DNA from: Dictyostelium discoideum
Lineage: Eukaryota
Reading direction: 5' to 3'
Assembly: GCA_000004695.1 (NCBI GenBank)
Contig: CM000153.2
Coordinates: 896,001-960,000, forward strand
Length of the DNA stretch: 64,000 nt
The position numbers were made by a program, and so were the translations under genes. The notes under the pieces are model-generated. The model saw nothing but the letters and a program-made list of their open reading frames with translations. It had not been told where the DNA came from and searched no databases. Positions 1,818 to 9,779 of the stretch are shown here, in pieces. Position 1 is the stretch's first letter, and each line of letters opens with the position of its first letter.

Positions 1818-2626
1818 TTAACAATTTGGACCTCTTGCAGAAAGCATTGTTGCGTAATCAATTCTTCTTTTTTTGAACCACTATAAAAAAAGAATTAAAA
1901 ATAAATAAAAAATTATTAATACTTTTTATAGTTGATATTAAAAAAAAAAAAAACAAAGTTATAACTTACTTCTTGTAATTCATTTACGGAAACACATCCA
2001 TCTTTATCCAAGTCAATAATTTTAAGGTATTGATCACGATCAGAGTATGGAGTATAGCCACGTCCTTTAAAGTATTCAAGAAATTCTGTTTGGCTTAATT
2101 TTTTATCCTTATCTTTAATTTTTTTAAAAAAAATAAAAAAAAAAAAAAAAAGTAAATTTTAGCATATATTTCAAATCACATTAATCTTACTTTAAATAAA
2201 GTATAATATTATTATAAAAGATCTATTTTACCTTTATCAAATCTTAATAACATAGCTTCTACATCAGCCAATGCAGCAATCTCAGCATTTTGTTCAATTT
2301 GTTTTTTTGCCTTGTCTACACAATACTTAGCAATTTCACAATAAGTGAATTTACCATCATGGTCCATATCAATTGTTGAACACAAAACACCAGTTGCCTG
2401 TGATGCCTTATAAACATCACCATTCATTTCTATTTTAATATTTAATAATAAAAACTGTAAGTATAATTATTTTAATGCTTATATTCTTTTGTTGTGGTTT
2501 TTTCAATATTTTACTTTTTAAAAATGATAGATATATATCATATGAAGTTACACTGCCATCCTTATTTAAGTCATAATTTTGGACAAAATTTTGAACTTCT
2601 TCAAAAATTTTACGATTATTGTTCAT
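1818..2626 (-). CDS. EF-hand calcium-binding protein (Dictyostelium CBP-family-like), tandem copy 1; 4 exons: 2515..2626, 2232..2429, 1970..2112, 1818..1880 (171 aa)
   Basis: ATG at 2624-2626 (minus strand). Exon 1 ends SFLK+a at a GTAAAA donor; the acceptor AAAATAG lies immediately before AAATGAATGG. Exon 2 carries the EF-hand loop [16 protein letters not shown] and ends GATAAAG|GTAAAA. Exon 3 encodes [48 protein letters not shown] with donor CAAGAA|GTAAGT. Exon 4 encodes [20 protein letters not shown]. The exon lengths and phases (112/198/143/63 nt) are reproduced in all four paralogs. Exon 4 has in-frame 15-nt length variation between copies, which supports it being coding. Confidence 0.7.
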
Positions 2627-2896
2627 TGTAATATAAAAATATGTAAATTTTTACTTCTTTGTACAAAAATAAAAGAGAATTTGAATAATGAAATTTTAAT
2701 TTCAAAAAATTATTCTTTTTATTTTTTGTATTGATTTTATTAAAAAAAAAAAAAAAAATAATTATAATAATAATTTTTTTTTTTTTTTTTTAATTTTAAT
2801 TAAACCAATTGGGTGTTTTCAAATATAATCAGGTGTTGATTTAATAAAAAGTAGGGGTGTGGGAATCAACACAGACTTACAAAAAAATTTAAATTT

Positions 2897-2960
2897 AGTG
2901 ATTTAACACAGACTTACAAAAAAAACTTTTTTTTTTGTAGGTCTGTGTTAAATCACTAGA
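2897..2960. promoter_or_regulatory. Near-perfect 28-bp inverted repeat (GTGATTTAACACAGACTTACAAAAAAAA / TTTTTTTTGTAGGTCTGTGTTAAATCAC) plus a direct repeat ACACAGACTTACAAAAAAA x2, about 300 bp upstream of cbp copy 1
   Basis: Seen directly. The half-site GTCTGTGTTAAATCAC(A/T)A(G)AAAATCACATTC is conserved upstream of all four cbp copies (about 4415-4455, 6785-6825, 10060-10090). The flanking block GGTAAATATTCTGACTTAACCATTTATATTATCCA(A/C)CTGTT is also conserved (3020-3070, 4520-4570, 6870-6920). Confidence 0.4.
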
Positions 2961-3084
2961 AAATCACATTCTCCCACACACCACCTTTTTTTTTAAATTT
3001 TTTATTAATAATAAAAATTAATGGTAAATATTATGACTTAACCATTTATATTATCCAACTGTTTATTAATTTTTGAAATGTTAC

Positions 3085-3115
<31 letters not shown>

Positions 3116-3344
3116 ATTAAAAATTAAAATTAAACAATTATTATTAATTGAATTGAAACATTATTGGGGATATTAAGAAAATAGAGGGGTTGCATAAAAA
3201 CCAATAGAGCTTCCTTAAAATAAATATAATTAATAACTTCATTTAAAGAAATTGAATATTTATTTAATTTTTTTTTTTTTTTTATGTACCAAACTTTAAA
3301 ACCTTATAAAATAAGATTAATGTGGTATTATGTCCCAAGAGAAT

Positions 3345-4163
3345 TTAACAATTTGGACCTCTTGCAGAAACCATTCTTGCGTAATCAATTCTTCTTTTTT
3401 TGAACCACTATAAAAAAGAATTAAAAATAAACAAAAAAAAATTAATACTTTTTATAGTTGATATTAAAAAAAAACAAAAACAAAGTTATAACTTACTTCT
3501 TGTAATTCATTTGCAGAAACACATCCGTCTTTATCCAAGTCAATAATTTTAAGAACTTGATCACGATCAGAGTATGGAGTATGGCCATTTCCCTTAAAGT
3601 ATTCAACAAATTCTGTTTTGGTTAATTTTTTATCCTTATCTTTTATTATTTTTTAAAAAAAAAAATAATAAAAAAAAAAAAAAAAGTAAATTTTAGTATA
3701 TATAAATCACATTAATCCTATATTAATAAAGTAAAATATTATTAAAGATCTTTTATACCTTTATCAAATCTTAATAACATAGCTTCAACATCAGCCAATG
3801 CAGCAATCTCAGCATTTTGTTCAACATTTTTTTTTGCCTCGTCTGCACAATACTTAGCAATTTCTTGATATGTGAATTTACCATCATGGTCCATATCAAC
3901 TGTTGAACACAAAACACCAGCTGCCTGTGATGCCTTAAAAATATCACCGTCCATTTCTTTTTTAATATTTAATAATAAAAACTGTTAGTATAATTATATT
4001 AATCCAATATTCTTTTGTTGTGGTTTTTTTTCAATACTTTACTTTTTAAAAATGATCGATATATATCAAATGAAGTTACACTGCCATCCTTATTTAAGTC
4101 ATAGTTTTTGACAAATTTTTGAACTTCTTGAAAAATTTTATCATTATCACTATTAGTACTCAT
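3345..4163 (-). CDS. EF-hand calcium-binding protein, tandem copy 2; exons 4043..4163, 3759..3956, 3497..3639, 3345..3407
   Basis: Same 4-exon architecture as copy 1. Exon 1 encodes [40 protein letters not shown]; exon 2 encodes [35 protein letters not shown]...FDKG. Exon 3 is 143 nt. Exon 4 encodes [20 protein letters not shown]. Confidence 0.65.
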
Positions 4164-4573
4164 TGTAATTTAAAAATATGTAAATATTTACCACAAAGAT
4201 AAAAGAGAATTTGAAAAATAAAATTTTAATTTCAAAAAATTAGTCATTTAATACTTTTTTTTTTTTTATTGACCTGTGATAATAAAATAATTTAATTAAA
4301 AATAATAATAATAATAATAATTTTTTTTATTTTTTTTTAATTTAAATTGGGTGTTTACAAATATAACTGTTGATTTGAGAATGAAGCGAGTTCACACATT
4401 AAATTTTTTTTTTTTTTGAAAGTCTGTGTTAAATCACAAAAAAATCACATTCTCCCCCCCCCCCTTTTTTTTTAATTAATAATTAATAATTATTTATTAA
4501 TAATTAAATAAAAATTAGAGGTAAATATTCTGACTTAACCATTTATATTATCCACCTGTTCATTAATTTTTTT

Positions 4574-4625
<52 letters not shown>

Positions 4626-7774: not shown

Positions 7775-8037
7775 CACGGGAAAAAATTTTTTTAGAACAT
7801 TCATTATTTTTTGAGATATTTTATGACATGTAATTTCTCACTTTTTAAAAAGAGAAATTATAATTTAATAAAATTTTTAACAAATTAATATTAAATATTA
7901 ATTAATAATATATCACATGTTAATATAAAATTATCATTAAATAATAAAAAAAGAATTAATATGAAAAATGACATTTATAAATTTTTTAAATTTTTAATTA
8001 ATTTTATTTTATTTTGTTAGCTTTTTTTTTCCCCGTG
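7775..8037. mobile_element. 263-bp MITE-like non-autonomous element with terminal inverted repeats CACGGGAAAAAA / TTTTTTTCCCCGTG; the insertion site is empty in the paralogous repeat copy at 11090/11091
   Basis: The filled site reads ..CCTGGATT[CACGGG...CCCGTG]TTGACATCAG. The empty site at 11081-11098 reads ..CCTGGATTGACGTCAG. An internal partial copy lies at 16043-16250 (GAAATTATAATTTAATAAAATTTTTAACAAA...), with a diverged left end TTCACCAGAGAAAAAAAC. Confidence 0.5.
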
Positions 8038-8350
8038 TTGACATCAGTTCTATCAATTGTTTGTGGTCGTCCGGTAAATGTCATACAATGGTTACAACCA
8101 TTATTAACAAAGAGATTATCTACACTGTTGGTTTATGTAATTGATACATCTGATTTACCCCAATACCACTTCAGGTTTTTTCTTAATTAATGCTATGAAT
8201 TTTATAATTATTATTACTATTAATTCTTTTTGTTGATTTTATAAATTTGAGATGGTTATTATTATAATTATAATTAATAAAATGATTTCTAAATAATGTG
8301 ATAAAGTGAAAGAAATGGTGAATCTGATGATGTATTCAAAGATCACTTTG

Positions 8351-8394
<44 letters not shown>

Positions 8395-8525
8395 CAATGC
8401 TAATTTTATCAAATTTATTACAGCCTGCTAATTTTATCATATTATTTTAAGCCTTAAAACAGGTGGTATGTGTGGGCTGAAACTATTAAACCTGCTGTAA
8501 TTAATATAATAAAATTAGAAAGGGA
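8395..8525. repeat. Palindromic (hairpin-forming) element of about 130 bp, copy 1
   Basis: CAATGCTAATTTTATCAAATTTATTACAGCC...GCTGTAATTAATATAATAAAATTAGAAAGGG. The ends are reverse complements of each other. The paralogous copy is at 11412-11545. Confidence 0.45.
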
Positions 8526-8973
8526 TACATCTTCTCCAAAAGAAATAATATATCATATGTCATAAAAAAAAAAAAAAAAAAATTATTTTTTTATTGTTTT
8601 TATAAGAGAAGTGTATGGGAAAAATCAAACTCTGATGGTTAAAAATGCTGAGAAGTAACAGGATTAAAAAAAAGTTTAACGAGAAAAAAAAAAAAAAAAA
8701 AAATATAATAATATATAATAACAATATAAAATAATAGTAAATTTGTGATAAAATTATACAATAATAATAAATAATATTTACATCAAATTATTATTACGAT
8801 ATTAATATTTATTAACAATGTATTTATTAATATTTATTTTAATTTTTTAATAAAAAAAAAACAAAAAATGATTTTAGATTTTGGATAATGGAAATTGAAT
8901 ATTTATTTAATTTTTTTTTTTTTATGTACCAAACCTTAAAAAAAAGATTAATGTGGTATTATGTCCCAAGTTT

Positions 8974-9076
8974 TTTAACAATGTGGACGGCTTGCATAAT
9001 CAATTCTTTTTTTTTTGAACCACTAAAAAAAGGATTAAAAATAGAAAAAAATAAAAAATTAATACTTTTTATAATT

Positions 9077-9116
<40 letters not shown>

Positions 9117-9779
9117 AATGATATAACTTACTTCTTGTAATTCATTTGCGGAAACACATCCATCTTTATCCAAATCAATAATTTTAAGAACATAATCACG
9201 ATCAGAGTATGGGGTATCTGTTCCTCCTTTGAAGTATTCAACAAATTCTGTTTTGTTTAATTTTCTATCCTTATCTTTTATTATTTATTAAAAAAAAAAA
9301 AAAAGTAAATTTCAATATATTTAAAATCACATTAATCTTATTTTAAATAAAGTATAATATTATTATATAAGATCTATTTTTACCTTTATCAAATCTTAAT
9401 AAAAAAGCTTCAACATCAGCCAATGCAGCAATATCAGCATTTTGTTCAATTAGTTTTTTTGCATTGTCAGCACAATATTTAGCAATTTCATGATAACTGA
9501 ATTTACCATCTTTGTTTATATCAATTGTTGAACATAAAACACCAGTTGCTTTTGATGCCTCATAAGAATTGCCATTCATTTCTTTTTTTAAAATTTAATA
9601 ATAAAAACTGTTAGTATAATTTTATTAATGTCAATAATCTTTTGTAGTGGGTTTTTCAATATTTTACTTTTTAGAAGTGAATAATATATTTCTTGTGAAG
9701 TTAATACGCCATCTTGATTTAAGTCATAACCCTTGGCAAATTTTTGAACTTCTTGATAAATTTCATTATTAGTTAACAT
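8974..9779 (-). CDS. EF-hand calcium-binding protein, tandem copy 4; exons 9668..9779, 9384..9581, 9132..9274, 8974..9021
   Basis: Exon 1 encodes [37 protein letters not shown]. Exon 2 encodes [35 protein letters not shown]. Exon 4 is [15 protein letters not shown] (48 nt, in frame). Confidence 0.6.

Follow-up and report, generated by a model that had tools for sequence, protein, structure and literature searches.

We analysed a 64,000-nucleotide (nt) stretch of Dictyostelium discoideum DNA (GenBank assembly GCA_000004695.1, contig CM000153.2, positions 896,001 to 960,000 of the forward strand), referred to below as the window, which has a G+C content of 21%. Between positions 1818 and 9779 its minus strand carries four similar genes for EF-hand calcium-binding proteins (CBPs), each ending in a very short fourth exon, and the coding status and role of this terminal micro-exon are our main subjects. 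The region extends exactly from CBP12's stop codon to the ATG of cbpC. The gene models, which we rebuilt from the sequence, are as follows.

8975..9779, minus strand: cbpC (CBP3), 166 amino acids (aa); exons 9779-9668, 9581-9384, 9274-9132 and 9022-8975, of 112/198/143/48 nt
5731..6526, minus strand: cbpG (CBP7), 169 aa; exons 6526-6406, 6317-6120, 6011-5869 and 5778-5731, of 121/198/143/48 nt
3345..4163, minus strand: cbpF (CBP6), 174 aa; exons 4163-4043, 3956-3759, 3639-3497 and 3407-3345, of 121/198/143/63 nt
1818..2626, minus strand: CBP12 (cbpF-like), 171 aa; exons 2626-2515, 2429-2232, 2112-1970 and 1880-1818, of 112/198/143/63 nt
8975-9022, 5731-5778, 3345-3407 (63 nt) and 1818-1880, minus strand: terminal micro-exons of cbpC, cbpG, cbpF and CBP12, respectively

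The first-pass annotation of this region had proposed a tandem array of four four-exon cbp genes with shared exon lengths and phases. The array is borne out by the rebuilt models and by Pfam, and the shared structure is confirmed to the base, with exons of 112 or 121, 198, 143, and 48 or 63 nt and intron phases of 1, 1 and 0 in all four copies. Intron 3, which measures 109, 90, 89 and 89 nt in cbpC, cbpG, cbpF and CBP12, opens with a CAAGAA/GTAAGT donor, read as AGAA/GTAAGTTA, and closes with a T-rich tract leading to a TAG/TGG acceptor; its splice signals are the strongest among the three introns. If it were left unspliced, exon 3 would run on into a phenylalanine-rich sequence of the form VSY..(F)n and reach a stop 10-18 codons on. 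The length of the encoded tail differs among the copies by one in-frame 15-nt indel. What had been described of the donor, the indel and the read-through is correct in every point. The start-to-start spacings of the genes are 1537, 2363 and 3253 nt.

An exact full-length look-up showed that the four spliced products are, residue for residue, reference proteins of D. discoideum AX4: Calcium-binding protein C (CBP3, XP_638936 / Q54QT7) for cbpC, Calcium-binding protein G (CBP7, XP_638935 / Q54QT8) for cbpG, Calcium-binding protein F (CBP6, XP_638934 / Q54QT9) for cbpF, and Calcium-binding protein F-like (XP_638933 / Q54QU0 / EAL65589) for CBP12. Since the match is exact at every residue, the micro-exon already lies within the reference gene models. 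A newer assembly has the same four genes called in unchanged order, and it is 99.4% identical to the window, differing only by homopolymer-length gaps. Table 3 of Kollmar 2006 lists CBP3/cbpC, CBP6/cbpF, CBP7/cbpG and CBP12 with 166, 174, 169 and 171 aa, three introns each, and all on chromosome 4 contig AAFI01000093 (PMC1634994). A cluster note in the CBP3 row of this table names cbpC, cbpG, cbpF and 'CBP14'; the last name is in our reading a mistake for CBP12, since it is CBP12 that the table assigns to this contig, and CBP14 to another. The sequences, exon count, contig and gene order of the array do not differ from those of the D. discoideum CBP3, CBP7, CBP6 and CBP12 entries. We are highly confident that the region is the chromosome-4 cluster cbpC-cbpG-cbpF-CBP12 of D. 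discoideum and that the terminal exon is an ordinary coding exon, used constitutively.

The genes, their intron count, their clustering and their C-terminal sequence are already known from the reference annotation and the literature, and our analysis has little significance beyond confirmation. Its value is one of calibration, as the reading of raw sequence alone gave four correct eukaryotic gene models, including a terminal exon of only 48-63 nt. The expectation that this exon would escape callers based on open reading frames (ORFs) is right for plain ORF callers, as the 63-aa exon-1 read-through P0159 illustrates; eukaryotic annotation did not miss it.

That the micro-exon is coding, as had been proposed, is supported by the reference proteins, by a published cDNA and by a related species. 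CBP7's entire coding sequence was cloned by reverse transcription PCR (RT-PCR), with a 510-bp band obtained from wild-type cDNA (Park et al. 2018, PMC5824019). The exons of cbpG sum to the same length (121+198+143+48 = 510 nt), and the cDNA check of the junction between exons 3 and 4 is in this way positive for CBP7. The CBP12 protein has been detected by proteomics (PMC6830349). The Logan assemblies contained no spliced full-length contig for the four proteins. When compared with known Dictyostelium CBPs, the C-termini encoded by the array are identical to those of reference CBP3, CBP6, CBP7 and CBP12.

The gene structure is also preserved in relatives. A close relative (assembly GCA_054859385.1, locus L001) has a three-copy array with genes of 121/198/143/48 and 112/198/143/63 nt, and D. 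citrinum (locus L002) has a single gene of 109/195/146/48 nt. Intron 3 of the D. citrinum gene is 66 nt long and barely alignable, with about 39% mismatch to the AX4 introns over aligned positions. The junction still follows ...ELQE in this species, and exon 4 reads WFKKRRINCPVGPLA and then a stop codon. As a separate observation, the cbpC orthologue in the three-copy array has an apparent frameshift in exon 1 (L001 8353-8460, ...GFDVNKVYYLHKK... and then a stop), which is either an assembly error or the mark of a pseudogene.

In order to place exon 4 within the protein, we considered domain matches, a predicted structure and a family alignment. The Pfam families EF-hand_7, EF-hand_1, EF-hand_6 and EF-hand_5 match all four proteins above their curated cut-offs. 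The EF-hand 4 loop ends three residues before the end of exon 3, and the EF-hand_1 match reaches about 4 residues into exon 4 (in the 166-residue CbpC as far as residue 155, the last residue from exon 3 being 151). An AlphaFold model of CbpF, built with 13 family sequences (mean predicted local distance difference test (pLDDT) score 73.6, predicted template modelling score (pTM) 0.54), contains four helix-strand-helix units and has one helix over residues 149-169, while residues 171-174 have pLDDT values below 50. With residue 154 of CbpF the last from exon 3, exon 4 accounts for about 15 of the 21 residues in this helix. The alignment of the 13 family sequences shows no variation at F156, K157, R160 or the Pro of the terminal GPx and almost none at W155, and the stretch between the helix and the end is variable and holds the sole indel (ARMVS/ATMLS/AKMLS).

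Because of the Pfam profile match and the moderate-confidence AlphaFold model, we infer that exon 4 probably forms the second helix of the fourth Ca2+ site followed by a short variable end, and not an appended targeting peptide. The phase-0 intron 3 would interrupt the helix that exits EF-hand 4 directly behind ...NELQE, leaving exon 4 to supply the remaining helix (WFKKRR[ILM]xY...) and a short end that evolves fast and is probably disordered (..GPx[C/A]). The fourth Ca2+ site would lose most of its second helix if exon 4 were absent. Exon-3-truncated constructs would probably disable EF-hand 4, exon 4 being structurally part of it. The products of the four genes are four-EF-hand proteins of 166-174 residues, which we take to be developmentally regulated cytosolic Ca2+ sensors or buffers; Ca2+ binding by CBP7 has been reported from overlay assays (Sakamoto 2003, as cited in PMC5824019).

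Proteins of the CBP3/6/7/12 type were found only in the group of D. discoideum, D. citrinum and D. dimigraforme by word-indexed and profile searches. A protein of the CBP8/CbpH cluster and proteins of D. purpureum, D. firmibasis and P. violaceum resemble them in having about 160-170 residues, four EF-hands and a short extension after the helix of EF-hand 4, but match the family profile only at E values of about 1e-13 to 1e-7, and their last residues are Q, F or L, with neither a terminal Cys nor GPx[C/A]. The word-indexed search yielded close relatives alone. Generic multi-EF-hand proteins made up most of what the exhaustive profile search returned, and the comparison of C-termini covers a handful of dictyostelid CBP-like proteins. 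The predicted fold resembles those of calmodulin, troponin C and the neuronal calcium sensor (NCS) proteins, with two EF-hand pairs on a long central helix; the best structural matches are troponin C (TM score 0.47-0.54), calmodulin, NCS-1/Frq2, SCaMC-1 and Entamoeba CaBP1. Sequence identity to calmodulin, troponin C and NCS proteins is only 15-25%, and the array proteins differ from them in having a Lys at loop position 6 of EF-hand 3. A sequence search of the PDB gave no close solved structure, only generic EF-hand matches at E values of 1e-6 or weaker. Foldseek likewise gave a generic calmodulin/troponin C fold. Calcineurin B is also among the sequence and fold matches, and nothing in either search is specific to the tail.

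We compared rates of divergence between the array (1818-9779 of the window) and the corresponding loci of the close relative (L001 8065-13446) and of D. citrinum (L002 10001-10744). Among array members and their closest orthologues, the nonsynonymous divergence dN (0.09-0.20) roughly matches or exceeds the synonymous divergence dS (0.05-0.27) and the intron divergence (0.055-0.15), which means that the array proteins diverge about as fast as their own introns. For CBP12 and its L001 orthologue the values are 0.114 for dN, 0.049 for dS and 0.062 for introns. The dN/dS ratio (omega) is about 0.3 against D. citrinum, and exon 4 alone has too few sites for such an estimate. The high ratio among close copies may be attributed to relaxed or diversifying selection, to gene conversion, or to a bias of the Nei-Gojobori method in a genome of 78% A+T.

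If the micro-exon were unused, transcripts would end or be polyadenylated within intron 3 and the proteins would terminate in the phenylalanine-rich read-through. The read-through ORFs needed for this are present, with their 10-18 extra codons to the stop, and intron 3 is T-rich, like many Dictyostelium 3' untranslated regions (UTRs). However, the reference protein models include exon 4, and an RT-PCR product of 510 bp can only come from splicing of all four exons. The splice signals of intron 3 follow the consensus (GTAAGT...TAG), and neither AATAAA nor ATTAAA occurs within the intron in any of the four genes; a conserved AATAAA lies instead 65-81 nt past each stop codon, at 8907, 5666 or 5655, 3264 and 1741 in cbpC, cbpG, cbpF and CBP12. 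The indels of exon 4 are all multiples of 3, against irregular intron 3 lengths of 66, 89, 89, 90, 91, 98 and 109 nt in the array and its relatives, and both the reading frame and the WFKKRR motif are kept in D. citrinum across the diverged 66-nt intron. We give this alternative practically no chance, and transcripts ending within intron 3 are effectively excluded. Some points do weigh against the reading of exon 4 as a constitutive exon that completes EF-hand 4. The transcript support for CBP3, CBP6 and CBP12 consists of cited cDNA, expressed sequence tag (EST) and proteomics reports and not of RNA-seq junction reads. The dN/dS ratio is about 1 among the closest copies, so the comparison of paralogues shows no constraint on the distal tail. 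Finally, the extent of the predicted helix is approximate, as the confidence of the model is only moderate (mean pLDDT 73.6 with 13 sequences).

For a coding micro-exon the question becomes what its last residues do. The first-pass annotation had pointed to a polybasic tail with a C-terminal Cys as a possible membrane-association or palmitoylation signal, a suggestion that the evidence does not support. The four proteins end in RPHC, GPIC, GPNC and GPNC, with a single Cys as the last residue. In the AX4 proteins and the copies of the closest relatives this Cys follows (G/R/T)P-x, with 3-4 basic residues some 10-15 positions upstream, and S-acylation has no strict sequence motif, so an S-palmitoylation or electrostatic membrane anchor could be imagined. 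A lone terminal Cys fits, however, neither a CaaX motif, as there is no Cys at position -4, nor the Rab-type CC, CXC or CCXX endings, and the proteins are not GTPases. Their N-termini (MLTN, MSTC, MSTN and MNNN) have no Met-Gly myristoylation signal; unlike NCS proteins they lack Gly2, and so would have no myristoyl switch. The terminal Cys is shared by the AX4 copies and those of the closest relatives, which are annotated as D. discoideum or D. cf. discoideum. Its place is taken by Ala in D. dimigraforme (GGPKA) and D. citrinum (VGPLA), as well as in P0013 and P0014, which are of the CBP13 type (NPSA, GPTA), and by Q, F or L in more distant dictyostelid CBP-like proteins, including one of the CBP8 cluster. 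The basic residues of WFKKRR lie, as predicted by Pfam and AlphaFold, in the helix exiting EF-hand 4, and a green fluorescent protein (GFP)-CBP7 fusion, tagged at the N-terminus so that the C-terminus is free, has been described as cytosolic, with the data not shown (PMC5824019). Nothing relevant came from a literature search for Dictyostelium palmitoylation data. A membrane anchor of this kind seems very improbable to us. It is hardly more plausible that the terminal Cys is a recently acquired, reversible site of S-acylation or disulfide formation that mediates conditional attachment of CBP3, CBP6, CBP7 and CBP12 to the membrane or cortex; if that were true, the Cys site and a protein divergence no slower than the neutral rate would, taken together, be a sign that developmental Ca2+ sensors are still diversifying adaptively within the array.

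A different role for the extension past the EF-hand 4 helix (...DYA(RMVSA)RGPNC) would be that of a regulatory tail acting by folding back into the target-binding groove, by binding partners or by disulfide dimerisation, with the diversification of the paralogues tuning partner specificity. The C-terminal tail of NCS-1/frequenin fills the hydrophobic crevice of the same protein. In the tree of Kollmar, CBP1-13 are placed near the frequenins (PMC1634994); the tail varies more than any other part of the protein and holds its only indel, and dN is at or above dS among close copies. On the other hand, the last residues are predicted to be disordered, the variability of the tail is explained equally well by a lack of constraint, and the present analyses have no direct bearing on such a role. 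We regard both the regulatory tail and the tuning of partner specificity as unlikely, if conceivable, and prefer to see in exon 4 a predicted structural part of EF-hand 4 with a variable end.

The upstream elements had also been described as conserved between copies, and this is confirmed by a four-way alignment, in which about 330 nt upstream of the ATG are conserved in all four. The conserved features are listed below.

9780-10150, 6527-6850, 4164-4470 and 2627-2985, minus strand: conserved proximal promoters of cbpC, cbpG, cbpF and CBP12, respectively
10060-10071, 6792-6803, 4426-4437 and 2945-2956: GTGATTTAACAC box, one in each promoter

A further distal block is common to three of the copies, with a weaker copy upstream of cbpC. 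The GTGATTTAACAC box occurs 6 times in the window against 0.41 occurrences expected by chance, and 5 of the 6 lie in the promoters of the array. It is flanked by G-rich sites of the form KGKGKGK, which are clustered in these promoters; KGKGKGK is the consensus of the GBF response element as quoted in PMC2257962. From there the conserved block runs downstream via TTTGTAAACACCCAA to TATAAAAAG, which we take as a putative TATA box. The D. citrinum promoter retains TGATTTAACACAC, GGTGGGTGGAG and TTTGTAAACACCCAAT. These motifs suggest that the promoters of the array may be controlled by GBF, with which the post-aggregative expression described for these genes (PMC5824019) is consistent. The CBP12 promoter has an extra, inverted copy of GTGATTTAACAC at 2898-2909, opposite the one at 2945-2956. 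This promoter also contains, at 2885-2965, some 60 nt of the GTGATTTAACACAGAC box duplicated in inverted orientation, which form a hairpin absent from the other three.

The spacers between the genes are related to one another and to the DNA upstream of cbpC, where a block that we call block X is found. This block and the elements associated with it are as follows.

10762..11597, minus strand: block X, upstream of cbpC; annotated in the newer assembly as a hypothetical orphan protein of 142 aa (ACTFIT_006699)
7288..8582, minus strand: decayed block X copy in the spacer between cbpC and cbpG; aligns colinearly with 10762-11597 (76-93% identity)
5021..5258, minus strand: remnant of block X of about 150-240 nt in the cbpG-cbpF spacer; identity of 88% between 5021-5173 and 11224-11377
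11410-11542, with a copy at 8395-8523: 130-nt near-perfect palindrome with arms CCCTTGCTAATTTTAT... / ...TAAAATTAGCAAGGG, followed by a poly(A) run
7775..8037, minus strand: insertion of 263 nt resembling a miniature inverted-repeat transposable element (MITE), with 12-nt terminal inverted repeats (TIRs) CACGGGGAAAAAA / TTTTTTCCCGTG and a duplicated target AA

Spacer alignments showed no block X left between cbpF and CBP12. Since most of the extra spacer DNA is homologous to the block upstream of cbpC, block X looks like an original part of the repeat unit that was deleted to different extents, and not like a later insertion. The first-pass annotation had attributed the growth of the spacing to inserted repeats and MITE-like elements. 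This is true of two insertions: the 263-nt segment, which the alignment shows to be missing at the homologous site (about 11085) in the block X upstream of cbpC, and a segment of about 150 nt (about 7330-7470), likewise inserted relative to block X and partly related to the hairpin element. It is not true of most of the spacer DNA, which reflects differential retention of block X. The 263-nt insertion has the characters of a MITE, namely TIRs, a target duplication, no ORF and presence/absence variation, although a 2-nt duplication is too short to be conclusive. Small palindromic, non-autonomous MITE-like repeats of the 'thug' type have reportedly been described from Dictyostelium by Glockner et al. 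2001. The 263-nt insertion resembles such repeats in its 12-nt TIRs, lack of an ORF and short target duplication, and the 130-nt element resembles them in its near-perfect hairpin, the assignment to this family being putative.

The 130-nt hairpin has a DNA fold z of -8.2, and a partial third copy of it is found at about 7340-7412. A small RNA gene in the conserved upstream block was considered and rejected: an Rfam search of 1-12500 gave only sub-threshold matches resembling miRNA precursors, located on the two hairpins, and nothing real, and there are no tRNAs. The 142-aa protein of block X matched only itself among 5.8 billion proteins and both copies of the block are full of stop codons, and we rejected block X as a gene family or transposon protein as well. 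It is probably non-coding or a dead orphan gene. In the close relative, the annotators' 179-aa model P0012 joins the first block X ORF (MGTFVCIDSN...) to the cbp gene that has the apparent frameshift.

The array probably arose by tandem duplication of a unit composed of block X, distal promoter block, proximal promoter, gene and 3' block. Later on, block X would have been deleted step by step in the distal units, at least one MITE-like insertion would have been added, and recombination or gene conversion would have turned cbpF into a mosaic of cbpG-like and CBP12-like sequence; we infer this order of duplication and deletion events. In terms of intron divergence, cbpG pairs with the middle gene of the three-copy array of the relative (0.055) and CBP12 with its last gene (0.062), and cbpF has no partner there. 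At sites that differ between cbpG and CBP12, the upstream and 5' part of the cbpF unit (3250-4900) follows cbpG (61 vs 35 sites), and from the middle of exon 1 onward it follows CBP12 (23 cbpG-like vs 52 CBP12-like sites; Fisher's test for the switch, p = 3e-5). Because the site pattern switches from cbpG-like to CBP12-like, cbpF is, to judge by its nucleotide sites, a recombinant or gene-converted mosaic of its neighbours. This suggests that cbpF originated, or was homogenised, by unequal crossing-over or gene conversion.

Outside the array, the window contains a truncated relative of these genes and a group of RNA genes, at the following positions.

49240..49720, plus strand: truncated fifth cbp copy (CBP13), found by tblastn (E = 1.6e-24), 40 kb away from the array and on the opposite strand
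60823-60877, 62244-62301, 63090-63146 and 63587-63644, minus strand: Class I RNA genes (RF01414)

In the CBP13 copy the ATG of exon 1 is changed to ATA and exon 2 is intact. The donor of exon 2 is fused to the conserved 3'-UTR block, with exon 3, intron 3 and exon 4 deleted, and a G-rich box is kept upstream at 49036-49045. CBP13 has been described as a fragment and probable pseudogene (PMC1634994). Its relatives in other isolates are intact or near-intact (P0169, 165 aa; P0013, 156 aa). The four Dictyostelium Class I RNA genes (Rfam RF01414) score above the gathering threshold and lie within 2.8 kb. The sequence at 944-1677, just downstream of the cbp array, is 78% identical to a spacer within this RNA gene cluster (61293-62072).

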